Positions 1,112 to 16,393 of a stretch of DNA of 64,000 nt are shown one piece after another. The stretch lies in IMG/VR virus record IMGVR_UViG_3300045988_175377, one strand, 5' to 3'. Under the pieces are notes generated by a model. That model saw only the letters and a list, made by a program, of their open reading frames with translations. It was not told where the DNA came from and searched no databases. Positions within the stretch are counted from its first letter, which is position 1; each line of letters starts with the position of its first letter. The DNA comes from a virus. The translations under genes were made by a program, and so were the position numbers.

Positions 1112-1140
1112 TGAATGTGTGGACGTTTCTAGTATAACGC
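1112..1140 (-). promoter_or_regulatory. conserved promoter/leader motif, copy 1 (variant: TATACTAGAAACGTCCACACA)
   Basis: Gene-orientation read GTTATACTAGAAACGTCCACACATTC...GAGGAG..ATG upstream of the exonuclease gene; same variant as the copy at 37121. Confidence 0.5.
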
Positions 1141-1410
1141 CTATTTGGTGATGGCCTTGACACGCCCGTCCAGAACCGTTCTCACGACATCCTCGAAGTC
1201 CGTGCCGTCAGGCAATAGGTGGGAGTCTTGGAGGGTTCCGATAATCTTCAACAGTTCCGTATGCCCGTGCGGAGTGCGCTTATAGTCGCGGGTCGCACCC
1301 GCCTTGTATGCGCGACGCAACTGCAACGCCAACTGCTCCCGTGTGAGCGTGATGAAGTCTCCTTCCTCGATGGGATACCGTTCTTCCAGTTCTTCGTTGA
1401 GAATGCTCAT
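1141..1410 (-). CDS. hypothetical protein (~89 aa)
   Basis: ORF with internal Met start MSILNEELEERY preceded by an A-rich RBS region. Confidence 0.4.
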   Translation of the reverse strand: MSILNEELEERYPIEEGDFITLTREQLALQLRRAYKAGATRDYKRTPHGHTELLKIIGTLQDSHLLPDGTDFEDVVRTVLDGRVKAITK

Positions 1411-1435
1411 TTTTTTGTTTTTCCTTTCTGTTTTT

Positions 1436-1831
1436 TCAGACGTACATTCCCTCATGCCAGCCGTGTAGCAAACCCCATTCGGATAGTTTCCGGAACCATT
1501 TCTCGCATTCGTCAGCCACCTTGTTGGGATAATCCAACGTCGGGTTCACGTTGAGTAAATACTGGTAGTCGTAGGGTTGGCAGAAGTTCTCGTCCAACAC
1601 GTCAATCTGCCAGTCGCTACCGTCCTTGGCAATCTCGACATTCAATGTCATGTCATGGTCGGGGGAGACTGAACGGCAGAGGTACCAATACCCCTCACGG
1701 TGGTCGGTGAACCCCAGTCGGCGCATGGTCGAATCTTCGGCGGAACTCATGCTAAGCGCCGCATTGTTCTGATGCTTCGTGTAGGTGACGCCTATGGTCG
1801 AGAATCGAGGCGTGTTCTGATTGTCGGACAT
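1436..1831 (-). CDS. hypothetical protein (131 aa)
   Basis: ORF in the same-strand operon; no recognisable domain. Confidence 0.4.
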   Translation of the reverse strand: MSDNQNTPRFSTIGVTYTKHQNNAALSMSSAEDSTMRRLGFTDHREGYWYLCRSVSPDHDMTLNVEIAKDGSDWQIDVLDENFCQPYDYQYLLNVNPTLDYPNKVADECEKWFRKLSEWGLLHGWHEGMYV

Positions 1832-1839
1832 GTTCTCTC

Positions 1840-2211
1840 CTATTCTTCGCTTTCGCGCAAGTCGATTACCGGAATATGGGTATCGGCGGAATAGTGGACG
1901 GAATAAGGGTCGATTGTCCTATGCCGCCAACTGACACCACCTTCCACCGGCCAAGCCAACCAGCTTATGCCGTCCAAATAGTTCAGAATGCTGACGTGAG
2001 CAATCCAACGGCACCATCTTGCCGGGCATATCACGTCGAACATGGGAGTATCCTCGGTTCCCGGTCGGCAGGAATGCCGTTGCCAAGAACGAAGGCATAC
2101 GCGGTAGAGCGCATAGGAGTCATATGTTGGCAGTTCCTTGGTGTCGAATACCGCGCGAGTTGGGTGGTCATCGAAGAGGATTCGTTTGCCGAATTTAGTT
2201 GCTTGATTCAA
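1840..2211 (-). CDS. hypothetical protein (probable TTG start)
   Basis: ORF 1840..2403 begins inside motif copy 2; likely true start is a TTG after the AAAGGAGG RBS (~2211). Confidence 0.3.
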   Translation of the reverse strand: MNQATKFGKRILFDDHPTRAVFDTKELPTYDSYALYRVCLRSWQRHSCRPGTEDTPMFDVICPARWCRWIAHVSILNYLDGISWLAWPVEGGVSWRHRTIDPYSVHYSADTHIPVIDLRESEE

Positions 2212-2244
2212 TGCGTCCTCCTTTTTGGGTTTTGTCTTTGTTTT

Positions 2245-2272
2245 TGTTGTGAACAATCCCACTATAACACAA
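2245..2272 (-). promoter_or_regulatory. conserved promoter/leader motif, copy 2
   Basis: Gene-orientation TGtTATAGTGGGATTGTTCACAACAAAAAC followed by AAAGGAGG. Confidence 0.6.
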
Positions 2273-2299
2273 GGGGGTAGAAAAACGCAACACGCAAAC

Positions 2300-2755
2300 C
2301 TAAGCCAGCGTCCCGTTAAAAAAGAACTCCCTCTTCCCAACCCGATACAAACCCACACGAGAGACGGACAGACGAAAATCAAAACGACGGAAGAAACCCT
2401 CATACATCGGCAACAACTCTTCCGGCACTGTCACCAGAGGGAACCGTTCATCCAGCGATTTCAATGCATATTCGACCAGCGTGGAACCAACCCCTCGACT
2501 CCGAAAACCCTCGTAGACATACAAAGTGCAAATCTTCCGTTCAGACGGATTTCTCTTGAGAACGCAAAACCCCGCCAACTCACCGTCTATATAGGCTAAA
2601 AGAATCACACGGTCTTCCCCCAATGAGGGGAGAACCGTGCGGTCGAACCAAATATCGAAGCCGGGATAATACGTTCGGATTGTCCCCGGAATGGGAATAG
2701 AAGCCGCAGTGCCAGCGTCCCGAACTACACTAATCCTCAACGAACTCGAACACAT
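2300..2755 (-). CDS. GNAT family N-acetyltransferase
   Basis: GFCVLKRN...LYVYEGFRSRGVGSTLVEYAL matches the acetyl-CoA binding motif (R/Q-x-x-G-x-G/A) of GNAT enzymes. Confidence 0.65.
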   Translation of the reverse strand: MCSSSLRISVVRDAGTAASIPIPGTIRTYYPGFDIWFDRTVLPSLGEDRVILLAYIDGELAGFCVLKRNPSERKICTLYVYEGFRSRGVGSTLVEYALKSLDERFPLVTVPEELLPMYEGFFRRFDFRLSVSRVGLYRVGKREFFFNGTLA

Positions 2756-2975
2756 GAAAATCCGTCACACGCTCGACGTTGACATGACTCGTATCATCCG
2801 GCCAAATATATAAGACCGGCATGTAACCGGACAGTTCACGAACTGCGAGATTGCTGAAACCGTCCAAGTAGAGGGTTCCGGCCATGGGTTTGCCGTTCCA
2901 TTTGAATATCGCGGACTTGCCTTCGAATTCTTTCCAGTTGATTCCGTCTTGATAGGGAAGTTCTTTTAAGGCCAT
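2730..2975 (-). CDS. hypothetical protein (81 aa)
   Basis: ORF overlapping the GNAT start by 26 nt; operon member. Confidence 0.4.
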   Translation of the reverse strand: MALKELPYQDGINWKEFEGKSAIFKWNGKPMAGTLYLDGFSNLAVRELSGYMPVLYIWPDDTSHVNVERVTDFHVFEFVED

Positions 2976-3056
2976 TGGTTTTCCTTTTTTGGTGTGGGCT
3001 ATCTCACTCTAACACAACAGGGGTAATGCAAAGAACGAAAAACCACCTTCCCACAC

Positions 3057-3332
3057 TTAGAATTCCGGCTCCTCAACATTCAACAACACCAGTTTCGGAC
3101 GGCGGCGCAGAATCCTGCAATCCTCTGCCCACGCGTCCAAAATTTCGCAAGCCAATACGGGTGCTTCCGGAGCCAGAGTAGGCATGGTGTTCAGAATCGA
3201 CTGGACGGAGTCTAAGTCTGCGAAGGGAAGTTCCGTCGCATTATTGGCTGCATCCAAAAGATAGTGGGGCATTCGTGCTCCTTCCAAAAATTGAAAAGAA
3301 AAAGCCTGTGGGCAACGATTTTCCACAGGCAT
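3057..3332 (-). CDS. hypothetical protein (91 aa)
   Basis: ORF only. Confidence 0.35.
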   Translation of the reverse strand: MPVENRCPQAFSFQFLEGARMPHYLLDAANNATELPFADLDSVQSILNTMPTLAPEAPVLACEILDAWAEDCRILRRRPKLVLLNVEEPEF

Positions 3333-3600
3333 TCTTAGCTTATTATTCGATTTCGCGAGGCTTCAGAACTTTGTCTGAAACACCAGCGCAATCGCGCTCA
3401 ATAATAGACTTTTTTACCGACTTTTATTCGTCGCACAAGTCGGTGTTGCGTCTGCCATATTCGTTTCGTTTCTTGGCTTGCGGATTCCAAGCGCTACCTG
3501 CATCCCATTCGATGTGAGTGGAACGGTTTTCCCTGTGAGTGTTGTTCTTGTTGGCATTGCCGGTGTTAATCCAGTCGTGGTTGCTCATTTTTTTCTACTT

Positions 3601-3975
3601 TCAGTAGCAGTCATCGCACCAACCGGTGTCCCCGCACGGATTCTCGTTTTCGTCGGTTAGCAGACAACCGCAACCGCTGCAATACATGTTGTCCGGATTG
3701 TCGGACGAAGCGAAAGAACCTTCCCTGACAATGTTACCAGCCAAGTCGGTGATGGTGTAGATTGCCCGAGTGTCGGCTTCCGGTGCGGGATAGCCGGACA
3801 TGCCTAGAATCCTGTTGTACACGTTCGTCAGTAGAGTGCGAACGTTTCCCACCTGACGAGTCCCATTCAGAATGGGAGCCGTCAAATGGTCGAAGAATCC
3901 TACCGTCGTATCCCAAGAATGCTGACCTTCGTGGATTTCAATTTCCAGCTTTTCCTTGCCGTCCGTGAATCGCAT
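3601..3975 (-). CDS. hypothetical Cys-rich protein (124 aa)
   Basis: C-terminal CSGCGCLL...CGDTGWCDDCY cysteine cluster; start 10 nt after the upstream stop. Confidence 0.4.
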   Translation of the reverse strand: MRFTDGKEKLEIEIHEGQHSWDTTVGFFDHLTAPILNGTRQVGNVRTLLTNVYNRILGMSGYPAPEADTRAIYTITDLAGNIVREGSFASSDNPDNMYCSGCGCLLTDENENPCGDTGWCDDCY

Positions 3976-3985
3976 TTTCGTTTTT

Positions 3986-4348
3986 CTACAATTCCCTCAT
4001 GGCCTTGTCTAAATCGGACACAATCGCGTCATACAGTCCGTCAACATCCAACGATTCCAGCTTGTGCGACGGCAAATCCACGGGAGTGTATTCCCCGTCG
4101 TCGAAAGTCCAATGCTCGACCGAAACCGTGTATACTCCTCCACTCCAACGGTAGGAACGTCTGCCGTTATGTTGCGAGTCTGCCACAAGATAGTATTCGA
4201 ACATCTTGCCCATGTATGGGCATTGGAATGCGACTTCGATTCCGTCTCCGAAGATGGCGTGGGTGGCGTGTGCGCCGGTCACGTATGGGATTTTGACAAG
4301 CTTGTCAATGAGTTTCCGATAGGTGTCTTCGCTGATTTTCGAGTACAT
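3986..4348 (-). CDS. hypothetical protein (120 aa)
   Basis: ORF; operon member. Confidence 0.45.
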   Translation of the reverse strand: MYSKISEDTYRKLIDKLVKIPYVTGAHATHAIFGDGIEVAFQCPYMGKMFEYYLVADSQHNGRRSYRWSGGVYTVSVEHWTFDDGEYTPVDLPSHKLESLDVDGLYDAIVSDLDKAMREL

Positions 4349-4411
4349 TCTGATTGTCCTTTTTTCGTGTGGTCGGTTTTGTGTGGTTGGGGTTTTTGTG
4401 GCGATTGTTTT

Positions 4412-4672
4412 TCAGCAACAGTATTCGTTGACTGCGTTGACGAGTTCAGCCATGCTCATGCCGTACACGTCGCTGTGGTGGGCGTAGATGTCTTTTGCGA
4501 AGAGTCTGTTTTGCATGACGTCGCGGGCTTCGGCGCTTTGTGCGAGTTTTACGCTTTCGGGGAATGTGCCTGTGGGGTTGTCATTGATTTGTTTGGCGTA
4601 TTCGATGGCTTGGGCTTTGGGCATTTTCCTTACGTTCATTGCGCCGCCGATGTAGTGGATTGCGTACATGTT
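4412..4672 (-). CDS. hypothetical protein (~86 aa, start MYAIHYIGG)
   Basis: ORF 4412..4798 extends through motif copy 3 (N-terminal YSGIVHTK is a motif translation artefact); real start is the ATG after the AAAGGAGC RBS. Confidence 0.4.
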   Translation of the reverse strand, partial: NMYAIHYIGGAMNVRKMPKAQAIEYAKQINDNPTGTFPESVKLAQSAEARDVMQNRLFAKDIYAHHSDVYGMSMAELVNAVNEYCC

Positions 4673-4694
4673 ATGTGCTCCTTTTTGCCTATCG

Positions 4695-4725
4695 CTCTTT
4701 GTGTGAACAATTCCACTATAGCACA
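4695..4725 (-). promoter_or_regulatory. conserved promoter/leader motif, copy 3
   Basis: TGcTATAGTGGAATTGTTCACACAAAGAG in gene orientation. Confidence 0.6.
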
Positions 4726-4801
4726 CTTGAGAGAAACCGCAAAACCCCAAAAAACAAAAGCAGGACACCAAAACAGCATCCCGCCTCCCCTCCATCAAAC
4801 C

Positions 4802-5767
4802 TCAATCGGACAAACCGGCACGGGCACGCATCTTGCGTTTAATCTCGCTACCCTTGGCAAACAAGCGCTCCATACGGGCCACGGTCTGCAACGCCTTCTT
4901 ATACTCCTCCAATCGAGAAGAGATTTGCCAATTACGAGGTTCCGCCAACGACTCCTCAATCAGAGAATCGGGAACATCCCACATAAAGGACATAATCCAA
5001 CGGCGGTTTTCCCCGCCCATGCGACGCCACAAGCGCACGGCACGCTTACCTTTGACCCATTCCGGATTATTAAACAAGACTTGGATGGCGGATTCGTCGG
5101 AGAGGGAGTCCAGCAATGGGTCTATGTCCGTTTCTTCCGCCAATGGTGCCGATAGGGCGCGAATGGTTTCGTCTTCGCTTTTTACCCAATGCTCGAAGCA
5201 GAGCCTATCGGCCAGCTTGTTTTCCACCATGTAGCGGATAACGTCGTAATCCGTCTCCTCCCAGTACATGCTTGCAACGGTATGCTTTGCGGCGAGCTTG
5301 CGTAGTTCGGGGTCTTTGTCCTTGGCGAGACCAATCGCGGTCTTATAGTTAAGCTTTCCCTTGTATTCCAAATAGTCGGCCACTTTGCGGCGAACGTCAC
5401 GACTCCGGTCTTTCAACACGGTTTCACGCAGTCCGTCGTATATTTTTCCGTCCTCGATTTTCATGTTGTACTTCAACTTGCAGTTGATGTAGTAGTGACG
5501 GAATGGTAGGGGGAGCAGAAATATTCTTCCACTCCGGTAGATGTTCTTGATGCTTTCCAGCAGGTCGATTCCCTTGTTGGTAAGCTTCCAACGGTCGTGT
5601 TCCTTGGTCAGTTCGATTAGGTTGGCTTCCTTGATTTTGTCTAAGGGCTTCTGGTCGATGTATGCGCTCAGTCGTTGCGAGTGGGTTTCGTTGTCGAAGT
5701 CCTCGAAGTAGTAGACGAGGTTGGCGTTCCACTTTTTGGTGAGAGTTTTGATTTCGTTGTTGTCCAT
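4802..5767 (-). CDS. hypothetical protein, paralog A (N-terminal winged-helix-like region plus HEAT/armadillo-like helical repeats)
   Basis: 321 aa; shares architecture and C-terminal RLEEY...FAKGSEIKRK block with the 6215..7156 product. Confidence 0.5.
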   Translation of the reverse strand: MDNNEIKTLTKKWNANLVYYFEDFDNETHSQRLSAYIDQKPLDKIKEANLIELTKEHDRWKLTNKGIDLLESIKNIYRSGRIFLLPLPFRHYYINCKLKYNMKIEDGKIYDGLRETVLKDRSRDVRRKVADYLEYKGKLNYKTAIGLAKDKDPELRKLAAKHTVASMYWEETDYDVIRYMVENKLADRLCFEHWVKSEDETIRALSAPLAEETDIDPLLDSLSDESAIQVLFNNPEWVKGKRAVRLWRRMGGENRRWIMSFMWDVPDSLIEESLAEPRNWQISSRLEEYKKALQTVARMERLFAKGSEIKRKMRARAGLSD

Positions 5768-5778
5768 GGTTTCTCCTT

Positions 5779-5805
5779 TTCTGGTATATCTTGTGTGAAC
5801 AATTC
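5779..5805 (-). promoter_or_regulatory. conserved promoter/leader motif, copy 4
   Basis: TGaTATACTGGAATTGTTCACACAAGA. Confidence 0.6.
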
Positions 5806-5906
5806 CAGTATATCATATTTAAGAGAAAGCGCAAAAGCGCAAAAAACAAAAAGCCGTGCAAATACAAAAAGCATTCACATGACTCGGAAATTTTTCCCAC
5901 TATTAG

Positions 5907-6203
5907 TTAGTCAAAGTCCGACGGTTCACCATTGACGTAGTTTAAAAACTGGTCGAAGGCATATTGCGCGGTATCTTCATAACGGCATGGCTTCGGCTGT
6001 GCGTTCTTTTCCTGCTCTTTCTGCTCTATCAACTGGTCTATTTGGCTTTGCTCATTGCGGTGCTGCCATGAAAGTGGTTCGTTGCCTTGGGCTAGGTTCT
6101 CATACACCGTGTATTCGTGCCCGCGATAGCTGTAGACAAGATAGACCATATGTGCGTCGTATCCGTGCCCGTAGTATTTTCTGATAAATGTCGCTTTTCG
6201 CAT
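5907..6203 (-). CDS. hypothetical protein (~98 aa)
   Basis: Internal Met start MRKATFIRKYYGHGYD just downstream of the paralog B stop. Confidence 0.35.
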   Translation of the reverse strand: MRKATFIRKYYGHGYDAHMVYLVYSYRGHEYTVYENLAQGNEPLSWQHRNEQSQIDQLIEQKEQEKNAQPKPCRYEDTAQYAFDQFLNYVNGEPSDFD

Positions 6204-6214
6204 TGCTATCCCTT

Positions 6215-7156: not shown

Positions 7157-7157
7157 A

Positions 7158-7185
7158 TTTTTGTGTGAACAATTCCAGTATACAA
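7158..7185 (-). promoter_or_regulatory. conserved promoter/leader motif, copy 5
   Basis: TTGTATACTGGAATTGTTCACACAAAAAT. Confidence 0.6.
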
Positions 7186-7261
7186 TTTGCTTGGACAAAA
7201 CACGCTAAAAAACAAAAAAGCGGGAACTACAGCAACAAGCCAATAATCCCCGCAAACCCAA

Positions 7262-7480
7262 TCAGCAGACGCTCGCGGAACCATCATCGCAAAGAGAGCA
7301 TAACAGGCAACCGATGCCGTTAATATCCCTTGTCAGATGCACGCCCTTGGTGGAGCCGCACTCCTCACAACGAATGCCACTGCGCTTACGAGCGGTATTG
7401 GGAGTGCGGGAGAGGGCAGACCCACGACGGTAGGTTTCCTTCCTTGGCGTGCCTATGACGTATTCCACACCGTCCAACAC
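7262..7480 (-). CDS. hypothetical small zinc-ribbon-like ORF, possibly the 3' remnant of an IS-disrupted gene
   Basis: CEECGS...CLLCSLC Cys pairs; lies between the motif-5 promoter and the left end of the IS. Confidence 0.2.
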   Translation of the reverse strand: MLDGVEYVIGTPRKETYRRGSALSRTPNTARKRSGIRCEECGSTKGVHLTRDINGIGCLLCSLCDDGSASVC

Positions 7481-7499
7481 GAACGGCTTGCTGACCTTG

Positions 7500-9150
7500 A
7501 CGGTTTTGTTGCGTGTAAGCCCGGTATTTTAATGCCGGGTTTGCACGCTATGCGTGTTTTTTGTTGATTACTCAAGGTATATGGTATCATATTGGTATGA
7601 GCCAAAAAGTACGAATCCTGAAAGTCCGGCATGCGGGGTGCAGTGTGTTCCTCGGCTTGGACTCTTACGGGAATCGTATGTGGACTCGTAGTCCGGAACG
7701 TATCATGGACTGGTTGTGCGACGGGTGGAGAAGCCGGTACAACCAGCATAGGGCGCATCGTCCCCAGCGTAGGCTCGTGGAGGATGTCGAAACCCGTGAG
7801 CGTATTTGGGTGGACGTGCCTTTGGGCGGCGCGGATGTGAAGCCCGCAGTCAAGGACAGTCAGGCACGATTGGATTGTCTTTGGCTGGCGTGCATCCCCT
7901 CGCCTATCCTCTCCTCGTGCGAACGTGTCGAGAATACGGGATGGTTCGCCGGATTGAAACGAAAGAAGACCAGTGGTGGCCGGGTTCCGGGTTTCCGTTC
8001 CCGTCATAAGGCTCCTCAGTATTTCGTGTGCTGGCGTAACCAGTCGAAGACCGGTAACGCCTTGTATTATCGGACGGGCAAGCGTGCCGGTGTGGTCGTC
8101 ATCACGGGCAGTGTGCCGAGACAGTATCGTCGTGAGGGTGAGAACGAGGCTCGTTGGCGTATCGCCATTCACGTGCGGGTGAGCCAACCCATTCGTGAAT
8201 ATACAAGTGTGGCGGTGAACTGGACGAACAGGACACTCGTGTTTACCAATAGTCCACTCCCTATCATCCGAACCGATACCGGTATGATGGTCGGTTTGGA
8301 TAGGGGTTGCGTGCATACCCTCGCCACGTCGGATGGACTGTTCCTCGACATGCTGCAACCGTCGGCGAAGGAAGTGGACGAGTATAAGCGTCTGCAACGC
8401 AAGCTCGCCCGACAGGACAGGACGAACGAGAAACGTGGCGGCAGGAACGCCAAATTCGCGTCCAAAAGCCGCAAGCGTACTCTCCAAGCCATGCGGAGCA
8501 TCCAACGTCGGATAGACAATCGCAAGGACGATTGGATAGCCAAAACGACCACCATGCTCGTCCGGGAATACGATTTCATCGCCATGGAACGGTTGAACGT
8601 GAAAGCCATGAGCCGAAGCGTCCGACCGAAACCAGACCCCGACAATCCGGGACATTATCTCCCCAATGGGCGGAAGAGGAAAAGCGGTTTGAACCGTAGC
8701 ATCCTCGCCAACCGTTGGACTGACCTCCTGCATTGTCTCGAATACAAAGCCAAGCTTGCGGGAACCCGACTCGTTCAGGTACCCGCCTATGACACGTCAC
8801 GCATTTGCAACGTCTGCGGATACTGCGACAAGAACAACCGTGAAAGCCAAGCGGAGTTCCACTGCCACAATTGCGGACATGAGGCGAACGCCGACGTGAA
8901 CGCGGCCAAGAACATTCTCAACCGCGCTTTAGAACCGGAAGGCACGGACGATGCCTACGAGTGGAGACAACAAGCTTCCACACTGGTGAAAACCGATGGG
9001 AAGCAACGTCGATGAAACTCAAACCCCTGCAATACCGGTCGGAATCTCTTCCATTAAAAAACATTAAGAAAGACACGTCCGACCGGCAACAGGAATCACG
9101 GGATTTCAATCCCGTGAGGAAGTCAAGATGTTCACGTGAGACACCTCGCC
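7500..9150 (+). mobile_element. IS200/IS605-family (IS1341-like, TnpB-only) insertion sequence
   Basis: TnpB ORF plus 3' structured region (GAATCACGGGATTTCAATCCCGTGAGGAAGTC hairpin) typical of omega-RNA/right end; exact ends not determined. Confidence 0.6.
7597..9015 (+). CDS. tnpB: IS605-family transposase accessory protein TnpB (RuvC-like RNA-guided nuclease)
   Basis: GLDRGCVHTLATSDG (RuvC-I), IAMERLNVKAM (RuvC-II), C-terminal zinc finger CNVCGYCDKNNRESQAEFHCHNCGHEANADVNAAKNIL. Confidence 0.8.
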   Translation: MSQKVRILKVRHAGCSVFLGLDSYGNRMWTRSPERIMDWLCDGWRSRYNQHRAHRPQRRLVEDVETRERIWVDVPLGGADVKPAVKDSQARLDCLWLACIPSPILSSCERVENTGWFAGLKRKKTSGGRVPGFRSRHKAPQYFVCWRNQSKTGNALYYRTGKRAGVVVITGSVPRQYRREGENEARWRIAIHVRVSQPIREYTSVAVNWTNRTLVFTNSPLPIIRTDTGMMVGLDRGCVHTLATSDGLFLDMLQPSAKEVDEYKRLQRKLARQDRTNEKRGGRNAKFASKSRKRTLQAMRSIQRRIDNRKDDWIAKTTTMLVREYDFIAMERLNVKAMSRSVRPKPDPDNPGHYLPNGRKRKSGLNRSILANRWTDLLHCLEYKAKLAGTRLVQVPAYDTSRICNVCGYCDKNNRESQAEFHCHNCGHEANADVNAAKNILNRALEPEGTDDAYEWRQQASTLVKTDGKQRR

Positions 9151-9711: not shown

Positions 9712-9741
9712 AGTTTTTGTGTGAACAATCCCAGTATATAT
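9712..9741 (-). promoter_or_regulatory. conserved promoter/leader motif, copy 6
   Basis: ATATATACTGGGATTGTTCACACAAAAAC. Confidence 0.6.
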
Positions 9742-10150
9742 TCAAGAATAGCAATCACGCAAGTCGGCACGTCAAAACAAACTACCCAATCACACAAAAA
9801 CCAGCAAGCCTATCAATGCAATAATCGACAGATAGGCCAGAACCATAAGAGACAATCCAACCCGCAGACCCCATCCCCAAGCCAATACGCGAGAATCGTT
9901 CTCCCTACCGACCTCTTCCATTTTGCGGCTCCAAGCCTGAACCTTATCGGTCAACTCGTTCTGCGTGAGCCAATTGCCGTCACGGTCGAACGGGCTAGGC
10001 TGATACGGCAGGTAGAAGAATCCCCTCCATATCCAATGGTGGCAATGCCGGATACGGTGGAATATTATGCCGCCAGATTTGCGCGGAACGGCGCAACCCC
10101 ATACGGAACGCCGGATTACGCACCGTGTCCAATAAACCCATTTTCTACTC

Positions 10151-10561: not shown

Positions 10562-10611
10562 GTCGAATGCTCCTTACCGTAGTGGGTGTGATTGCTTCCA
10601 GATTAACTCAA

Positions 10612-11334
10612 TCAGTCCAACGGTTTGCCGCGTCCGACAATCTTCTTACCGTCCGCGTTCCGCAACCATGCCAAGCCGTGACCATAGGAAACAACACCAG
10701 CTTTGACGGTCGGATTCTGCTGGAACGTGTAATAAACTTCCACCAGTCCGCCGCCACCGTTCGCTTGCAGAATACGAATCCTGTAATCCTTTTCCACGGC
10801 TTTGACGGCCATATCCCGTTCGAGTTCATCAAACCAACCGTAAAGTGGGAGCATGGCGAAAGCGGCTAATACTCCTACGGTGATGAACCGCCAATATGTT
10901 TTGGCCCCTACCAGTAGGGCGATTACCGCCACGAGAACGCCGATGATGGCGATTCCGGCCACGAGCTGGCGCCAATTGCCGTTGCAATCGTATTCGACGG
11001 GAGCATAGGGATTGGTGAGGGTCGGCGCGGATTTGACGGGTTTTGACTGTTTGTGTGGGATGGTCGGCCTGTAGGTCTTCGGCTCTTTCGTGGACACGGT
11101 TTCGGTCTTTGCTTTAGGTTCCGTCTTGACTGTAGGGTCGTTCTTCGGTTCGACGGGCTTAGGAACGTTCTTCTTTTCAGCTTCCACGGGCGGTGCCGGT
11201 GGTTTCAACATTTTCCGTTCCGTCTCTTTGACCACTCTTTGAAGTTCGATGGTGGTGGACGAGTCGGGTTCGTCCATCGGTTCCTGACCTAACATCATGA
11301 GGTCGTTTTCCAGCGAGACATCCCGTTCTTTCAT
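10612..11334 (-). CDS. membrane protein with Pro/Lys-rich linker
   Basis: PPAPPVEAEKKNVPKPVEPK repeats and two hydrophobic helices (LVAGIAIIGVLVAVIALLV; ITVGVLAAFAMLPLYGW). Confidence 0.45.
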   Translation of the reverse strand: MKERDVSLENDLMMLGQEPMDEPDSSTTIELQRVVKETERKMLKPPAPPVEAEKKNVPKPVEPKNDPTVKTEPKAKTETVSTKEPKTYRPTIPHKQSKPVKSAPTLTNPYAPVEYDCNGNWRQLVAGIAIIGVLVAVIALLVGAKTYWRFITVGVLAAFAMLPLYGWFDELERDMAVKAVEKDYRIRILQANGGGGLVEVYYTFQQNPTVKAGVVSYGHGLAWLRNADGKKIVGRGKPLD

Positions 11335-11357
11335 ACAAGGCTTCCTTTCTTTTTTGT

Positions 11358-11390
11358 CGGATATGAGAGAGGGGAGAAGCGGTCTGGATG
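11358..11390 (-). terminator. rho-independent terminator-like hairpin
   Basis: GGGGAGAAGCG-N10-CGCTTCTCCCC perfect 11-bp stem followed by a T-containing run on the minus strand. Confidence 0.45.
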
Positions 11391-11419
11391 ACGCTTCTCC
11401 CCGAGGCTTTTAGCATAGG

Positions 11420-11716
11420 TCAGAGGATTCGGGTTCCCTTGCGGGTGACGAGCATGATTCTGTTTTCGTAGCGGTTCTCGAAAACGTCCCAGTTGCCGCT
11501 CAGGACAGCCAAGCACACATTGCCTTTGATGAGGTTCCAACGTTCGTCGCAGTTGGATACGACGTGCTTCCAGTTGATTGGATTGGGCTTGTGGTGGGAG
11601 GTTTCCACGATGGCTTCGGTCATAGGCCTGTCTGCGTAGGCGTGGTCGTAGGTGTTGTCACTCGCGACGATGCTGATGGTGCCGTTGTCGAATGCGATTG
11701 GCTGGATGGTGTTCAT
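11420..11716 (-). CDS. hypothetical protein (~98 aa)
   Basis: Start MNTIQPIAFD after motif copy 7. Confidence 0.4.
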   Translation of the reverse strand: MNTIQPIAFDNGTISIVASDNTYDHAYADRPMTEAIVETSHHKPNPINWKHVVSNCDERWNLIKGNVCLAVLSGNWDVFENRYENRIMLVTRKGTRIL

Positions 11717-11748
11717 GTTTTCTCCTTTTGTTGTTGTGAGGCCGAACC

Positions 11749-11782
11749 CTTTTTGTGTGGACATGACCACTATAACACATGG
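11749..11782 (-). promoter_or_regulatory. conserved promoter/leader motif, copy 7 (variant)
   Basis: TGtTATAGTGGTCATGTCCACACAAAAAGG. Confidence 0.55.
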
Positions 11783-11867
11783 TCTGAAATATCACAATAC
11801 GAAAAACAAAAAATGCCGACCAGCGCCTAGAAGCGGAAGACCAAGCCCTGCGCCCTGACGAAAGACC

Positions 11868-12017
11868 TCAGAGCCTTCGGGGGGGGTCGAGGATGGTTCC
11901 CCCGTGTTCGTGGGTATACTGTTCGGCGCTCTCAAGCGAAGTTAAGAGTGTGAGCTGGTCTTCGTATTCGACTGGCCACACCTGCTGTGTCTGCTGGTAG
12001 GCGTGTTCTATATACAT
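11868..12017 (-). CDS. hypothetical small protein (~49 aa)
   Basis: ATG 20 nt after motif copy 8 (MYIEHAYQQTQQVWPVEYED...); below the ORF-track size cutoff. Confidence 0.2.
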   Translation of the reverse strand: MYIEHAYQQTQQVWPVEYEDQLTLLTSLESAEQYTHEHGGTILDPPRRL

Positions 12018-12036
12018 GTTGTTCCCCTTTTTAAAT

Positions 12037-12069
12037 GGTTTTTGTGTGGACGATTCCAGTATACCACAG
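12037..12069 (-). promoter_or_regulatory. conserved promoter/leader motif, copy 8
   Basis: TGgTATACTGGAATCGTCCACACAAAAACC. Confidence 0.55.
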
Positions 12070-12142
12070 AGGGATAATGCAAAAATCCCTCACTGCACAG
12101 CCGCAAAAAGCTAAACCCGTCGAATCCAACGGGTTTAGAATC

Positions 12143-12481
12143 TCAGGGAATCAGCTGCCAAATCCGCCAGCCGACCAACCCCAACAGTACGAGCACCCCA
12201 ATCGCATACATCCACGTGCCCGCGTATCCGCCCGCGAGGAACGCGCTCATCCGACGTTTCCGTTGCTCCAGCAGTGCGTACCATTCGCTCTCGCAACGGT
12301 CGAACATGTCCGCGTCCATGCGGGTGCCTCCGTACATGTCGAGCCAATCGCGCACGGTCGGCATGGGACCCAACGGGTCACGCAGACGGGCGTGCGGTAT
12401 GAGGGCTATTTTCAACCCCTGCCACACGCCCTTGAGAAAGAACGCGGGTAGCCTGTCCCCGGTCATGACAGCTCCCCACAT
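12143..12481 (-). CDS. hypothetical C-terminally membrane-anchored protein
   Basis: C-terminal hydrophobic helix AGGYAGTWMYAIGVLVLLGLVGW. Confidence 0.35.
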   Translation of the reverse strand: MWGAVMTGDRLPAFFLKGVWQGLKIALIPHARLRDPLGPMPTVRDWLDMYGGTRMDADMFDRCESEWYALLEQRKRRMSAFLAGGYAGTWMYAIGVLVLLGLVGWRIWQLIP

Positions 12482-12547
12482 GGTTCGACGGTTTGCCTCA
12501 GCCCCCGTTCGACCAGTGCTCTCACCGCCGCGTTCCACGTGAGTTCG

Positions 12548-12805
12548 TTATCGTCGGCGTACTGCATGGTCAGCCGGTACAGGTCGGCGGGCAACATGAC
12601 CACACGGTTCACGTTCGGCATCGCGTTGCCTCCAGAACAGGTGGGCGAGCGAATCGGCGTCGATGTACCGGCGTCGTCCGATTTTGTAGGTGCGTATGCG
12701 ACCGGCCTTCAGCAGGTCGTACACGTGCTGGCGTGAGCAGGAGAGGTAGGCCATCGTGTCAGCTATAGTGAGGATGGCTGGCAGTTCCTTGGCTTTGGTT
12801 CTCAT
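12548..12805 (-). CDS. Xis/AlpA-type helix-turn-helix DNA-binding protein (excisionase family)
   Basis: LTIADTMAYLSCSRQHVYDLLKAGRIRTYKIGRRRYIDADSLAHL matches the HTH_17/MerR-like excisionase domain. Confidence 0.6.
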   Translation of the reverse strand: MRTKAKELPAILTIADTMAYLSCSRQHVYDLLKAGRIRTYKIGRRRYIDADSLAHLFWRQRDAEREPCGHVARRPVPADHAVRRR

Positions 12806-12822
12806 TGTCAAGTCCTCTTTCG

Positions 12823-13212
12823 TTAATACCGGCATTCGCAACCGGAATCCAAAAACTCGTGTTCGCCGTCGCTCCACAGCACGGCCTCTATGGTCGAAGG
12901 GTCGTTCAGGTCGATGAAAAACGCGGCAAGCTCGTCCGCCGACAAGCGGGAGAACTCCTCGCCCACGGCTTTATAGAATTCGTCCCAAGCGGCTTGGTCG
13001 GCGTCCGATTCCATGAGCGTGGAGAACCGTTCCGCCAGTTGCGTGGATGGGAGTATGGCATGGGAGAAGCCTTCATCCGTGATATCGAGCCATGCATTCA
13101 AGCACCTGTCGGCCAGTTCTCCGACCGGGAAGGTCAGCATTCTCGTGGCGGTGCCCGTCCACTTGGTTTTTTTTAGAAAACTGACTTCTACGGCCTTGGT
13201 CTTGTGTTCCAT
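12823..13212 (-). CDS. acidic ArdA-like (antirestriction-like) protein, paralog 1
   Basis: Acidic 129-aa protein; motifs ...GxWLDIxDxG near the N-terminus and W-x-D-x-x-x-C/E-x-x-x-Y/F at the C-terminus recall ArdA DNA-mimic proteins (comparison from memory only); paralog of 14048..14425. Confidence 0.35.
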   Translation of the reverse strand: MEHKTKAVEVSFLKKTKWTGTATRMLTFPVGELADRCLNAWLDITDEGFSHAILPSTQLAERFSTLMESDADQAAWDEFYKAVGEEFSRLSADELAAFFIDLNDPSTIEAVLWSDGEHEFLDSGCECRY

Positions 13213-13238
13213 GGTCTAACTCCTATTCAATGGCTTTC

Positions 13239-13269
13239 TGTTTTTGTGTGAACGATTCCAGTATACATG
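13239..13269 (-). promoter_or_regulatory. conserved promoter/leader motif, copy 9
   Basis: CATGTATACTGGAATCGTTCACACAAAAAC. Confidence 0.6.
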
Positions 13270-13327
13270 AATGCACAAGAACGTCAAACCAGCTTCCAGC
13301 CAAGCGCGTTTTCAATGCATTAAGGCG

Positions 13328-13543
13328 TCAAAGCGAACCATGTCCGCGTGTCCTCTCCAAGGCGAACTGATAGGCGACTTCATCCAGTTCCTTGGGTTCC
13401 AACCCGTCCAGCACGGCGAGTGCGAACCTCACACGCTCACGGTCATCGACCGGCAACCAGATGTCGTCGGCTCCCGCGACGACGTGAATGCCCATGCCGT
13501 CGTTGTCGCTGATGTAGTCGAATCCGGTGAACTTGACATTCAT
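13328..13543 (-). CDS. hypothetical protein (~71 aa)
   Basis: Start MNVKFTGFDY after motif copy 10 and an AAAAAAGGAGG RBS. Confidence 0.35.
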   Translation of the reverse strand: MNVKFTGFDYISDNDGMGIHVVAGADDIWLPVDDRERVRFALAVLDGLEPKELDEVAYQFALERTRGHGSL

Positions 13544-13605
13544 GCTTCCTCCTTTTTTCTCAGTCTTCCCCGTTGTCTGAACGATGCGACGTAATACGGT
13601 TCCAA

Positions 13606-13637
13606 TGTTTTGTGTGAACAATTCCAGTATAGCGCAC
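13606..13637 (-). promoter_or_regulatory. conserved promoter/leader motif, copy 10
   Basis: GCTATACTGGAATTGTTCACACAAAAC. Confidence 0.6.
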
Positions 13638-13713
13638 TTTGTAAAACAGGCAACACGGACACGTCAAAAAAACAAAAAGCCCCGCCAAAACGACGAGGCC
13701 ACAATCCTGAAAA

Positions 13714-13914
13714 CTAACGATTCATGCTCAAACGAACCTCAACCGCGACGGTCAGCAACACCACCGTAATGGCGCACACGGATACGATACCGAACGTGCG
13801 GCCAAACGTGAACAGCCAAGTGCCGAACGAGTAGATGCCGAACGCGACTGCGGTTGCCACCCCACCGAAAGCGATGGTGACAAGCGTCATAAGCAGAACA
13901 TCCTTGATATACAT
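13714..13914 (-). CDS. small two-TM membrane protein (66 aa)
   Basis: Two hydrophobic helices; start 16 nt after an AAAAGGAG RBS following motif copy 11. Confidence 0.4.
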   Translation of the reverse strand: MYIKDVLLMTLVTIAFGGVATAVAFGIYSFGTWLFTFGRTFGIVSVCAITVVLLTVAVEVRLSMNR

Positions 13915-13947
13915 TTTTTCTCCTTTTGGTGATGGGTTTTACGAACC

Positions 13948-13979
13948 CTTGTTTGTGTGAACAATTCCAGTATACATCA
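13948..13979 (-). promoter_or_regulatory. conserved promoter/leader motif, copy 11
   Basis: GATGTATACTGGAATTGTTCACACAAAC. Confidence 0.6.
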
Positions 13980-14047
13980 TGTTGGGTACGACACGCCAAA
14001 CAAAAAGCGCCCCACCCATCCAAGGGAGAGGCGCTAAAACCCGACGG

Positions 14048-14425
14048 TCAGAACTCATACTCGCAATCGGAATCGAGATACCATTTGTCGCCGTAACCCC
14101 AAAGAACACGACGGATGGTCGCAGGGTCGTTTAGCTCAACGAACTTGGACGCCAGTTCATCCACCGACTTGGCGGAAAAAGCCTTGCCGACGGAAGCGTA
14201 GAATTCATCCCATTCCGCCTGTTCGGCGTCGGAATCGACCAGCTCACGGAACCGTCCGGCAAGCTTCTCGTCCGGCAGTGTCGCTTCCGCAGAATTCGTG
14301 TCCTCTATATCCAACCAAGCGCCGAAACACTTGTCGGCCAACGATTTAACCGGAATGGTGAGGATGCTGGAATACGTGCCCTTCCAAGCGTTCTTCTTGA
14401 AGAAGCTAACGTCTCGTGCCTTCAT
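14048..14425 (-). CDS. acidic ArdA-like (antirestriction-like) protein, paralog 2
   Basis: MKARDVSFFKKNAWKG...CFGAWLDIEDTN...GDKWYLDSDCEYEF; paralog of 12823..13212. Confidence 0.35.
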   Translation of the reverse strand: MKARDVSFFKKNAWKGTYSSILTIPVKSLADKCFGAWLDIEDTNSAEATLPDEKLAGRFRELVDSDAEQAEWDEFYASVGKAFSAKSVDELASKFVELNDPATIRRVLWGYGDKWYLDSDCEYEF

Positions 14426-14439
14426 TTTCCCCGTTCCTC

Positions 14440-14934
14440 CTATTCTTCCTCGCCGTCCGCCTGACGGAGCGGAACGATACGGTTCCACTGTTCCTCATAC
14501 TCGTCCTCCGCGTCCTTGGAACCATTGTCCAGCAGTTTGTTCAACGTGGCTCGTCCTACGTCGCTGAGACGACTGATGCTGCGGAGAATGCTCGCCACGT
14601 CGTCGGCTTCGTATAGTTTATTGCGATTGTCCGACAGTTCTTGATACTTCGAGTCGGTGAGGTTCCAAACATAGTCTTCCAGCAGTTTCCAGTCTTCTTT
14701 TTCGGCAGAGGGTACTGGAATCGGCTTGGTGAGCCGCCAATCTTCGAGAATGTCCACCCAAAGGTCGGTCTTGACGTTGTATTCGCCAAGGTCTTCCTCG
14801 TGGGTGAGTTTTTCGATTCGTTGTTCTTCGCCGTTCTCGTCCAAGTAGTCTATTGTGAGATATTCACTATCCACTGACAAGGTGGAGAGTTCGCGTAGCT
14901 TGGTGATTTTGAGGTTGGTGATTGTGTTAATCAT
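14440..14934 (-). CDS. hypothetical acidic protein (~164 aa)
   Basis: Start MINTITNLKI after motif copy 12; no recognisable domain. Confidence 0.4.
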   Translation of the reverse strand: MINTITNLKITKLRELSTLSVDSEYLTIDYLDENGEEQRIEKLTHEEDLGEYNVKTDLWVDILEDWRLTKPIPVPSAEKEDWKLLEDYVWNLTDSKYQELSDNRNKLYEADDVASILRSISRLSDVGRATLNKLLDNGSKDAEDEYEEQWNRIVPLRQADGEEE

Positions 14935-14958
14935 TTTTGTTCCTCCTTGTTGGAATCT

Positions 14959-14990
14959 ATCTTTTGTGTGAACAATCCCAGTATACCATG
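14959..14990 (-). promoter_or_regulatory. conserved promoter/leader motif, copy 12
   Basis: CATGGTATACTGGGATTGTTCACACAAAAG. Confidence 0.6.
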
Positions 14991-15046
14991 TTTGTTGGGA
15001 AAACAAAAACAGCCCACTCCCCAAAACAAGGAAGCGGGCTGAAAAG

Positions 15047-15871
15047 TCAGGCATTCAGCAAAGCATGGGACGAAACACCCATTTCAGACAAACCCAAACC
15101 CACATTGTTCGCGTCACTCACACCACGAGCAAAACCATCCTTGCTACCACGAGCAGTGGCCGCACGACCCGGCACCAGCTCAAGCTTGTCAAAATACTCG
15201 TTCAGACGCTGACTCTTGCATGACACCAGCTCACGACCGGAAGGAATGGCGAGACTCTGCTTGCGAAGCTCCTCGAAACGTTCGCTCAAACGTTCGTTGA
15301 ATCCACCGCGATAACCATAATAGAACTTGGCGCGTGGATAATCACGACGCATGTACTGTTTGCATTCCGTCAGCGTCGGATAGGATTCACGTCCGTAATG
15401 CGTTTCGACGTATTCCTTGTTGTCCTCATAGTACGCTTTGGCGTGCTGGTCAATCATGTCCGCGTAGCTAGTGCGGGCGTGGACTGAGCAGTACAGGTCG
15501 ATGCTTTGGAAGAGAAGGACTGCGGCGTTCACATCGTCCTCCTCGCCTACGAACATGACGGCACGTTCCTTAATCCTTCCGCCACACCGGCTTTCGTGAA
15601 TGTAGGCGCGGCATTCGTTAGCTTGGGCGATGATGGTCGCAAGGTAGCCTTGCTGATGGTAGATGGTGGTTTTGCTTACGTTCACGCCACGTTCGATGAT
15701 TGGCTTGTTCGTGCGGGTGCGGTCGCGTTTCCAGTCTTCGATACGATATTCGTTGATGAGTTTCTGTGCCCGCTCGAACGCCATTTGCGCCTCATTGTCG
15801 CTGGAAGCTTCGTTTTCGGCTATTGCCATGAGGTTGTTGATGCGTTCGATGATGCTGTCGATGTTGCTCAT
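15047..15871 (-). CDS. DUF2786-like protein (plasmid/phage-associated)
   Basis: N-terminus SIIERINNLMAIAENEASSDNEAQMAFERAQKLINEY matches the DUF2786 signature (KIRKLLALAE...EAEAALLKAQELM pattern, from memory). Confidence 0.5.
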   Translation of the reverse strand: MSNIDSIIERINNLMAIAENEASSDNEAQMAFERAQKLINEYRIEDWKRDRTRTNKPIIERGVNVSKTTIYHQQGYLATIIAQANECRAYIHESRCGGRIKERAVMFVGEEDDVNAAVLLFQSIDLYCSVHARTSYADMIDQHAKAYYEDNKEYVETHYGRESYPTLTECKQYMRRDYPRAKFYYGYRGGFNERLSERFEELRKQSLAIPSGRELVSCKSQRLNEYFDKLELVPGRAATARGSKDGFARGVSDANNVGLGLSEMGVSSHALLNA

Positions 15872-15894
15872 TTCTTGCTCCTTGGTTTTTCTTT

Positions 15895-15925
15895 TATCTT
15901 TTGTGTGAACAATCCCAGTATACAG
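15895..15925 (-). promoter_or_regulatory. conserved promoter/leader motif, copy 13
   Basis: GCTGTATACTGGGATTGTTCACACAAAAG. Confidence 0.6.
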
Positions 15926-16024
15926 CGTGCGAAAAAACGACACACCCAAAAAACTATAAACAACCTCCGAAAAAACAAACCCCTCCAACCTATAAGGGAA
16001 GGAAGAGTACTGTTACAGAATCGC

Positions 16025-16339
16025 TCAGGCGTCCAAGTGGGAATGATGCAGAAGCCTACGAACATTGATATTGTGGACAAACCTATCCTGACCGACAATC
16101 CTCGAAGCAAACTCCCTATCGGTATATCCACCGTCGGAAACACCGTCCAAAACAGTCTCGGGAATATTGTCCAACATGTAATAGCTGACGCCGGTCTGAC
16201 TCTCGACATGCTCGAAAAGCATGTAGTAGACGCCCTCGGGGTCGTCTGTGAAACGACTCATGACATACGACTTGTCCTTGACTACGAAGATGTTGTAGTC
16301 CTCTGCGCCGAACTGCTTGAAGTATGCAGGCTTATTCAT
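16025..16339 (-). CDS. hypothetical protein (104 aa)
   Basis: Start MNKPAYFKQF after motif copy 14 and an AAGGAGAAAAAA RBS. Confidence 0.4.
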   Translation of the reverse strand: MNKPAYFKQFGAEDYNIFVVKDKSYVMSRFTDDPEGVYYMLFEHVESQTGVSYYMLDNIPETVLDGVSDGGYTDREFASRIVGQDRFVHNINVRRLLHHSHLDA

Positions 16340-16361
16340 TTTTTTCTCCTTGGTTTTTCAA

Positions 16362-16393
16362 CTTTTTTTATGTGAACGATTCCAGTATACTCC
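16362..16393 (-). promoter_or_regulatory. conserved promoter/leader motif, copy 14 (first/outermost of the array)
   Basis: GAGTATACTGGAATCGTTCACATAAAAAAAG. Confidence 0.6.

Follow-up and report, generated by a model that had tools for sequence, protein, structure and literature searches.

The 64,000-nucleotide stretch analysed here (the window), taken from the IMG/VR virus record IMGVR_UViG_3300045988_175377, carries many copies of a 24-30 bp element that stand at the heads of genes and operons. We think it probable that this element is a promoter and transcript-start module specific to the pMP7017-type megaplasmids of Bifidobacterium, with a box that may dock a factor, and that it serves as a portable junction as well. 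The repeat is real and far above chance. By its consensus it is a lineage variant of a promoter motif already published for this plasmid family, which had been overlooked in an earlier note on this DNA, made from the letters alone. The 16-kb gene array that holds most of the strong copies is a mosaic of terminator-promoter-gene cassettes, in which the breakpoints between relatives fall inside motif copies. This is a new finding; that the copies are junctions of cassette gain, loss and reordering had also escaped the earlier note.

The 18-mer GGAATTGTTCACACAAAA, with up to three mismatches allowed, has 13 matches in the window as against 0.11 +/- 0.31 in shuffled sequence, and none of 100 shuffles reached 13. 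A 29-column weight matrix built from the copies, with 20 shuffled windows as the null, gave 15 strong copies at 36-49 bits, where the top shuffle score was 11.9 bits; 13 of them are on the minus strand within 2242-16393 and two on the plus strand (37123 and 59820). There are six weaker copies (Table 1), and one of these, at 37029(-), scores inside the shuffle range and was accepted because of its context (the sequence of the hub in which it lies and a syntenic divergent pair on pMP7017). Both searches confirm the earlier claim that the repeat recurs across the array. The coordinates then given were right within a few bases, except that 5779 should read 5788; all the copies then listed were found, among them a degenerate one placed near 10575 (under the matrix cut-off, at 10582-10605(-)), and those at 2987, 32695 and 37029 were absent from that list. 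Every copy, strong or weak, is intergenic and co-oriented with the gene it precedes. The 13 strong array copies are packed into 16.4 kb, with two more copies over the next 10 kb, and the array copies are closer to one another in sequence than to the copies in the plasmid backbone. Most of the genes downstream have no Pfam family, in line with their description in the earlier note as mostly uncharacterised small genes.

In gene orientation the window consensus reads TATACT GGAATT GTTCACACAAAA, with full conservation over TATACT and the next 18 nt. TGn stands 5′ of TATACT in about half of the window copies, and TGnTATACT reads as a good extended -10 of the host type; the promoters of B. breve are of the canonical sigma-70 type (PMC5746004). 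All 15 strong copies have TATACT or TATAGT, separated by 6 nt from the conserved segment that follows, which we call the box. The start site is predicted on the invariant G after this spacer, which would give the transcripts the 5′ end GUYCACAYAAAA. Every intergenic box in the window is joined to a -10-like hexamer, and the three box-like matches that are not so joined all lie within coding sequence and look like chance. The -35 region is not conserved, and nothing is conserved past +13. A Shine-Dalgarno sequence (SD) and a start codon lie 3′ of every copy on the same strand, with 33-76 nt from +1 (the invariant G) to the start codon and a box-to-SD distance that varies from about 16 to 60 nt. 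The anatomy proposed in the earlier note is supported: an extended -10 runs directly into a conserved segment, which covers the start site plus ~12 transcribed bases, and SD and ATG come after it.

The box is asymmetric apart from a TGT-YC-ACA mini-dyad with arms of 3-4 bp, and in predicted leader folds it is mostly unpaired (mean P(unpaired), the probability of being unpaired, 0.58-0.94). No conserved RNA fold was found in the window leaders, where a GGGTT...AACCC hairpin follows the box in a minority only, and neither Rfam families nor tRNAs were found in the window. Terminator-like hairpins with T-runs lie upstream of at least five copies (four are given in Table 1; the fifth is at 15999-15980). 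Their number in the window, 28 as against 19.8 +/- 4.9 in shuffles, is a modest excess, and neither their sequence nor their position is conserved.

By its proteins, the window is part of a ~222-kb megaplasmid of Bifidobacterium adolescentis that is a distant relative of B. breve pMP7017. Window proteins are identical to NCBI entries named from B. adolescentis, the metagenome contigs that carry them are of 222-229 kb, and the exact proteins are recorded in 533-1506 index blocks of public assemblies; IMG/VR classes such contigs as viral. The gene content includes SpaA-type pilins, a sortase, DnaB, a ParA-like ATPase, a reverse transcriptase and TnpBs. The top similarity of the window DnaB (52-54%) is to pMP7017-family megaplasmids of B. 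breve and B. longum, with 54% identity to pMP7017 itself, an AAA ATPase is 59% identical to its pMP7017 counterpart, an 886-amino-acid (aa) protein is a conjugation-type AAA ATPase conserved in pMP7017, and window 37-61 kb is syntenic with pMP7017 56-35 kb in inverted order. Among deposited phages and plasmids no close nucleotide relative of the window was found, save a TnpB insertion sequence (IS), and a literature search found no paper describing a B. adolescentis megaplasmid.

On pMP7017, Dineen, Bottacini, O'Connell-Motherway and van Sinderen (2024, PMC10832533) described a ‘34 bp motif overlapping the -10’, 5′-AWAYATGYTATACTGAATATGTCCACATAAAAWA-3′, mapped by RNA sequencing (RNA-seq) upstream of highly expressed transcription units. 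They predicted it to drive 56 genes (~24% of coding capacity), reported it absent from bifidobacterial chromosomes and called it ‘likely a transcription factor binding site’, with no regulator identified. This origin in promoter mapping at the heads of highly expressed units bears out the reading of the window element as a promoter in the earlier note; the RNA-seq behind the family motif is of pMP7017 in B. breve UCC2003 only (PMC10832533), and the start sites in the window are predicted ones.

We find about 26 promoter-coupled copies of a homologous element, ATATGYTATACT-GAATAT-GTCCACATAAAA, on pMP7017. Nearly all of its 30 matches to GTCCACATAAA (up to one mismatch) have ATATGYTATACT-GAATAT directly in front and a conserved leader with an SD behind, and only three of about 30 box copies are uncoupled from a -10. 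In both elements 6 nt separate TGY-TATACT from GTYCACAYAAAA, and SD and start codon come after; both are multi-copy, plasmid-specific and at the heads of orthologous genes, on plasmids of one family with a syntenic backbone. Set against AWAYATGYTATACTGAATATGTCCACATAAAAWA, the window consensus has the core TGYTATACT-G.A..T-GTYCACAYAAAA in common and differs at about five positions (-5, -3/-2, +3, +8), which are linked: the window has GGAATT-GTTCACAC where pMP7017 has GAATAT-GTCCACAT, with at least four positions differing together. The host species also differs, and the proteins of the two plasmids are only ~35-59% identical. In pMP7017 the leader is conserved over its whole ~30 nt, whereas in the window only the first 12 nt are, and the window copies crowd a 16-kb array whose units, mostly of one gene, have terminators of their own; the cassette-junction role is seen for the window plasmid and has not been reported for pMP7017.

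In both plasmids the motif stands before at least five genes or operons that are orthologous. The exonuclease gene 506-1090 has its pMP7017 orthologue at 82026-82622 (motif copy at 81991), the DUF2786 gene at 27466-28245 (copy at 28278) and gene 59876-60247 at 34788-35150 (copy at 35184); gene 37196-37372 has an orthologue with a copy at 147938, and the divergent pair at the DnaB operon corresponds to a syntenic pMP7017 pair at 56058(-)/56132(+). Since orthologous genes carry the motif in both, its association with them predates the divergence of the plasmids, whose proteins are now 35-59% identical. In consensus, overlap with the -10, distance to the start codon (within about 60 bp for the family motif), carriage on a related megaplasmid, orthologous genes headed and absence from chromosomes, the window element agrees with the pMP7017-family motif.

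The element, whose search in related plasmids the earlier note had advised, is present in pMP7017, in IMG/VR contigs and in Bifidobacterium callitrichidarum. Window, pMP7017 and IMG/VR contigs together supply 261 unique instances, whose consensus reads AT(A/G)TGnTATACT G(G/A)A(A/T)(T/A)T GTYCACAYAAAA; the spacer is always 6 nt, the fifth -10 position is C in 231 of them, and the box is fixed between nearly information-free flanks. A third lineage, in B. callitrichidarum, has GGCGTGTC-N16-TATACT-GTAAnT-GTCCACACAAAA. Common to all three lineages are TATACT, N6 and GTYCACAYAAAA, while spacer sequence and -35 region vary from lineage to lineage: in B. callitrichidarum TRI 5 (loci L217, L222-L224, L227, L231, L234, L235 and L239) the non-canonical box GGCGTGTC stands 16 nt upstream of TATACT in 85% of copies, and CGTGTY is found at the same spacing in only ~13% of window-type copies (for example those at 13950, 7158 and 15898). 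Across 185,579 species-representative genomes a strict pattern had no match. A degenerate one matched 27 loci, of which nine are contigs of B. callitrichidarum TRI 5 (plasmid or chromosome), while each of the remaining 18 is a lone match in an unrelated taxon, so that B. callitrichidarum TRI 5 alone has it in multiple copies.

Beside the motif, the three lineages have in common a protein of 87-89 aa without a family (L247 18196-18465; pMP7017 82946-83209; L222 2211-2477), encoded outside the window and, at 48-55% identity, among their best conserved small proteins. In pMP7017 and the window lineage its gene is on the same strand as the exonuclease gene, 1-8 kb downstream of it. This protein was also considered as a candidate regulator.

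Several single sites on these plasmids are worth recording. The divergent hub at window 36990-37200 has two extra CCACA units per side (GACCACAAAAA and TTCCACAGG on the minus side, GACCACACCC and AGCCACACAC on the plus side). CCACA units in the manner of iteron arrays are not generally enriched near copies, the exceptions being this 37-kb hub and one orphan site of pMP7017. At that site (60343-60384; L108 10340-10400), which separates a gene of the replication region from the open reading frame (ORF) after it, a tandem pair of TCCACAA units (ATCCACAATCCACAACAACTGTCCACATAAAA) precedes a promoter-less box that is kept in five related contigs. At pMP7017 107040-107090 (L109 7040-7090) a perfect box, complete with SD and ATG (GTCCACATAAAActcgaaaaaggaaaacccATG), is found in frame within a gene for an XRE-family helix-turn-helix (HTH) protein, WP_052791208.1, at Met69; it could be an internal start, a gene-fusion scar or an autoregulation site. 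At 120557 (L109 20557) the motif and an SD-like leader, with no start codon near, precede an 18-gene tRNA array (121375-125804; L109 21375-25804) by ~0.8 kb.

Alignment of the window with related contigs shows that cassette order in the 16-kb array varies between them. A copy is found within 60 nt of 49% of the 304 homology end points, as against 13% for uniformly placed points, and the remaining end points are mostly at gene 3′ ends. Among 20 distinct junction types in the array, seven join one copy to another, overlapping by 24-87 nt, and ten have one end at a copy. Locus L038, for example, matches window 9657-9738 up to the motif and then 14962 onward, the switch occurring within an identical 24-nt block; this junction (9740/14960) falls exactly inside the 24-nt motif in six loci. 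Cassette 15924-16335 is absent from four loci (junction 15920/16340, 55-nt overlap), junction 4760/5790 is present in four loci and 7130/14010 in seven, and 13950/14990 is seen as well; further breakpoints cluster at 5780-5840 (29 alignment ends), 7130/7180, 11700/11780 and 13610-13620 (17 alignment ends). An insertion of the IS200/IS605 type with a TnpB gene (7503..9126) interrupts the array and is not part of the element; it is absent from 12 related loci, which have a precise junction there (7500/9130, gap -1), and its TnpB is 88% identical to one encoded on a B. longum plasmid. The shuffling mechanism would be homologous recombination between copies, which we put conditionally because end points near promoters are partly expected when genes move as whole units.

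Such an arrangement has a precedent in the PeSL (promoter-early stem-loop), a mobile regulatory cassette known from T4-like phages (Arbiol et al. 2010, PMC2839356; Comeau et al. 2014, PMC4122927). There a terminator hairpin, a strong host-type promoter and an SD stand before small ORFan genes in a hyperplastic region; in the window promoter and SD are always present, and terminator-like hairpins precede at least five copies. In the phages the end points of indels and replacements between close relatives sit in the repeats, as they do in the window array; the concentration of repeats upstream of small genes of unknown function is likewise found here, as the density of strong copies shows. The PeSLs belong to phages, however, and the window element to a plasmid of a Gram-positive, actinobacterial host; they conserve the -35/-10 and an AT-rich upstream region, whereas the conserved part here lies at and after the -10 and start; and the window terminator keeps neither a fixed distance nor its sequence. 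Mini-circles carrying PeSLs are described in T4-like phages, while the window array is known from its sequence. The window cassettes are best called a PeSL analogue and not a member of the class, because their context is a conjugative-type megaplasmid.

We propose that sigma-A RNA polymerase of the host would read the extended -10 (TGnTATACT), with a weak or variable -35, and that the invariant 6-nt spacer would set initiation on the invariant G, so that every transcript would start GUYCACAYAAAA and run on into a short, unstructured, A-rich leader and a strong SD. The +1 to +12 box and the fixed -10 region would most likely dock one sequence-specific factor, joining establishment, anti-restriction, replication and accessory genes in one plasmid-wide regulon. 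In many units an intrinsic terminator precedes the ~30-bp module, which would therefore also act as a portable junction: recombination between copies would have removed, added and rearranged the terminator-promoter-gene cassettes of the 16-kb array. We infer the use of sigma-A, as we do the existence and nature of the factor; among 223 annotated features of pMP7017 there is no sigma factor or RNA polymerase. That the box is an operator bound by a dedicated factor is quite possible, if somewhat short of probable, and a factor acting on DNA is favoured because untranscribed positions that sigma does not need are conserved.

Several points weigh against this proposal. The start sites on pMP7017 were only ‘presumed’ from RNA-seq coverage (PMC10832533); the candidate search found no regulator; the box has no symmetry beyond its mini-dyad; and breakpoints at promoters are also expected from gain or loss of whole genes. 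The box is near-unchanged while the plasmid proteins have diverged to 35-55% identity, and a slowly evolving host machine (RNA polymerase, ribosome or RNase) would explain this constancy equally well. Simple tight repression is unlikely, given that several of the pMP7017 genes under the motif show high log-phase expression (PMC10832533). Lastly, the three box copies on pMP7017 without a -10 keep box and SD, one of them in five relatives, and because of this a role at the RNA level or as a roadblock fits them better than a promoter operator does.

It is conceivable, if rather unlikely, that the signal is indeed the 5′-terminal RNA GUYCACAYAAAA, read by a trans factor (an RNA-binding protein, RNase or ribosome) to govern stability or translation, the fixed spacer then serving to start every RNA exactly at G. 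Beside the promoter-less boxes, such a reading would be consistent with a box that starts precisely at the predicted +1, that keeps an invariant spacing to the -10 and the sense orientation in all copies, that is predicted largely unpaired, and that is constant across hosts and lineages while the untranscribed spacer and -35 drift. Yet there is no conserved RNA structure or Rfam family, the distance from box to SD is loose in the window, no RNA-binding candidate was found, and untranscribed positions are conserved too (TGn, the C at -8 of TATACT, the G at -6). A more speculative form of the idea, which we would give little credence, is that GUYCACAYAAAA is a 5′-terminal ‘self’ tag by which an RNA-binding factor, encoded by plasmid or host, tells plasmid transcripts from those of the host. 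Such a tag might have plasmid mRNAs translated or stabilised in preference just after transfer, or might spare them from an RNase or toxin that the plasmid encodes; the 6-nt spacer would then only place the tag, and the promoter-less box-SD sites of pMP7017 would be sites of processing or re-entry.

Alternatively, and this we hold as a tentative possibility, there may be no dedicated regulator at all: a very efficient core promoter with an extended -10, a G-rich discriminator start and favourable initial transcribed sequence, followed by an unstructured, A-rich 5′ untranslated region (5′-UTR), would have spread by copy and paste with incoming genes, its uniformity coming from descent and from recombination between copies. 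The mutual closeness of the array copies and the exchange of cassettes at the motif would fit this, as would the pMP7017 copies of the entire 5′-UTR with its SD, even upstream of the tRNA array, the highly expressed log-phase genes among those headed (PMC10832533) and the precedent of the T4 PeSL (PMC2839356). It is harder to reconcile with purifying selection, which is evident where orthologous promoters keep the box between randomised flanks and ahead of proteins 35-55% identical, or with fixed positions that sigma-A does not need (the C at -8, and +3 to +12). A generic optimum might also recur elsewhere, but the pattern is multi-copy in no other species-representative genome, other Bifidobacterium included.

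The length and rigidity of the block raise the question of a plasmid-encoded sigma, a sigma-appropriating factor or a phage-type single-subunit RNA polymerase. A T7-type promoter spans -17 to +6, and 24-30 bp is about that size; GGCGTGTC upstream of TATACT in most B. callitrichidarum copies points the same way, as does a WhiB-family protein encoded within motif-driven operons in the pMP7017 and B. callitrichidarum lineages, WhiB being a class that binds sigma-A region 4. We nevertheless regard this as very improbable. None of the 223 pMP7017 features is annotated as such an enzyme or factor, the large unknown window proteins are homologues of the conjugation backbone (the 886-aa one is an ATPase, not a polymerase), TGnTATACT is a good host-type extended -10 with heterogeneous -35 regions in the window and pMP lineages, and a pattern-limited search found WhiB in the pMP-type and B. 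callitrichidarum lineages only, with none in window-type contigs.

The earlier note had named as its own refutation that the element be part of a larger mobile repeat, such as the ends of a miniature inverted-repeat transposable element (MITE). Many copies do lie at cassette boundaries, and the array resembles the anti-defence and establishment islands of plasmid leading regions; we nonetheless consider both a mobile repeat (MITE-like or like an integron attC) and a single-strand leading-region promoter of the Frpo type scarcely credible. There are no terminal inverted repeats, target duplications or larger unit, conservation ending at about -17/+12; Pfam calls over 0-26 kb give no integrase or recombinase, the IS-borne TnpB being the sole transposition-related gene; and copies head backbone operons at orthologous positions in distant plasmids. 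The likeness to leading-region promoters that the note had drawn does not hold up either: single-stranded DNA folds of six copies (z = -2.2 to +1.0) are no better than those of shuffles, the only consistent hairpins being the upstream terminators, and the element is ordinary duplex promoter sequence, lacking the long imperfect hairpin that rebuilds -35 and -10 in Frpo. A functional parallel is possible, as Frpo drives early expression of the ssb and anti-restriction type, and ssb and orphan methylases are motif-headed in pMP7017.

The KorA/KorB operators of IncP-1 plasmids, which the earlier note had also invoked, are palindromes at various distances from their promoters and have known repressors, KorB being a ParB homologue. 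As with them, one cis site is common to many plasmid promoters and would coordinate replication, transfer and establishment, but the window site is asymmetric and always at +1. ParB/KorB is not annotated on pMP7017, and no Kor or ParB homologue was seen in the 64 kb examined of the ~222-kb plasmid, where ParA-like ATPases are present; membership of that class of operator is not supported. Comparable in form are the stoperators of mycobacteriophage L5, reportedly 13-bp asymmetric sites for the gp71 repressor that are said to occur in other cluster A phages also. They too belong to an actinobacterial mobile element and are short, asymmetric, intergenic and set by the dozen in one orientation to transcription, and a few pMP7017 copies lie inside operons without a promoter. 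The L5 sites, however, are mostly promoter-free and block elongation, whereas the window copies all stand at a fixed distance from a -10 and are not independent of a promoter, and no gp71-like repressor was identified.

The single regulator that the earlier note had expected to read the element was not identified among the candidates checked. The note's own candidate, an Xis/AlpA-like HTH protein (12548..12805; HTH_17 match 2.8e-12) in a motif-driven operon, is a poor one for a family-wide regulator because pMP7017 has the motif and no HTH_17 homologue. The XRE and ImmR-like/ImmA proteins of pMP7017 were not found in the window-lineage sequence examined, and the small proteins flanking the divergent hub have no recognisable domain or family. 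Known sites compared by eye (LexA (Cheo), CRP/GlxR, NrdR and omega heptads) misfit in spacing or half-sites. Interference at the motif by the cas3-less type I-E CRISPR system of pMP7017 was also rejected, as no spacer matches the motif.

Megaplasmids of the window and pMP7017 type are common in the human gut, pMP7017 relatives having been reported in ~10% of sampled microbiomes (PMC10832533). One cis element, near-unchanged across three lineages, heads about a quarter of pMP7017 coding capacity and most of the array units here. Identifying its reader would open one point of access to establishment, anti-restriction, replication and the expression of cargo in the largest known bifidobacterial plasmids. 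It would also provide an expression signal that is plasmid-specific, compact and portable, for use in a genus that resists engineering. The mosaic of cassettes is a route by which small-gene cargo is renewed, and brings to a Gram-positive plasmid an idea drawn from the PeSLs of T4-like phages.

Table 1. Copies of the element in the window, with the genes that they head.
Position	Strand	Copy	Bits	Sequence (hexamer, spacer, box)	Gene headed and surroundings
1112..1140	-	weaker	24.6	GTTATACT AGAAAC GTCCACACATTC	DnaQ-like 3′-5′ exonuclease gene 506-1090 (RNase_T Pfam match 1.5e-33)
2242..2270	-	strong	40.0		gene 1840-2211 (123 aa, no family); leader 43 nt
2987..3015	-	weak	16.7	TAGAGT GAGATA GCCCACACCAAA	gene 2730-2975 (81 aa; pMP7017 homologue at 32205-32420)
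4696..4724	-	strong	42.7		gene 4412-4669; terminator-like hairpin 4788-4756 upstream
5788..5816	-	strong	41.2		HEAT-like gene 4802-5767 (321 aa)
7158..7186	-	perfect	48.7		HEAT-like paralogue 6215-7135 (306 aa)
9714..9742	-	strong	44.2		gene 9312-9689 (125 aa)
10582..10605	-	degenerate		TAATCT GGAAGC AATCACACCCAC (direct reading)	precedes gene 10151-10561 (GTG start)
11750..11778	-	strong	36.1		gene 11420-11716 (98 aa)
12039..12067	-	strong	46.2		49-aa ORF 11868-12017; terminator-like hairpin 12138-12111 upstream
13241..13269	-	strong	43.4		operon 12823-13212, 12548-12805 (HTH_17), 12143-12538
13607..13635	-	perfect	42.8		gene 13328-13543; longest leader, 76 nt; terminator 13700-13678 upstream
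13950..13978	-	strong	44.1		membrane-like gene 13714-13914 (66 aa); GGGTT...AACCC hairpin in leader
14961..14989	-	strong	46.1		genes 14440-14934 and 14048-14425; 13-bp-stem terminator 15041-15010 upstream
15898..15926	-	strong	43.8		DUF2786/DUF7168 gene 15047-15871 (Pfam matches)
16365..16393	-	strong, CACAT variant	39.4		gene 16025-16339
32695..32723	-	weak	15.1	CATAGT GGGTAC GCCCACAAAAAA	between dnaB and a Band_7/flotillin-like gene
37029..37057	-	weak	9.4		replication operon (74 aa, 183 aa, 587 aa, 122 aa, DnaB); half of divergent pair
37123..37151	+	strong	36.5		rightward backbone operon (37196-37372 onward)
59820..59848	+	strong	38.5		gene 59876-60247 (123 aa)
60289..60317	+	weak	15.4	TATAGT GGAACC AGTCACAAACAA	

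Among the genes headed, the two HEAT-like paralogues (4802-5767 and 6215-7135, ~310 aa) give weak HEAT-repeat and winged-helix signals and have a motif promoter each; their alleles in related contigs are 74-79% identical in DNA, with identical promoters. Elsewhere in the window a second TnpB gene of the IS200/IS605 type lies at 62676-63800, and a reverse transcriptase gene (RVT_1, 19775-20929) lies ~2 kb from an AAA_16 ATPase gene (16627-17784), with two function-unassigned genes between them. The AAA ATPase 38886-39842 has a sub-threshold match to the anti-phage ATPase IteA (176.8 bits, cut-off 510); it and the RVT_1/AAA_16 genes are possible defence cargo. The type I-E CRISPR arrays of pMP7017 (67.7-68.4 kb and 72.6-73.6 kb; L107-L110) have no cas3 in the gene table, and their spacers match pMP7017 itself at 4384-4411 (27/28), a related megaplasmid contig (L161 1256-1287, 31/32) and L191/L151 (21/21), which suggests plasmid-against-plasmid targeting.

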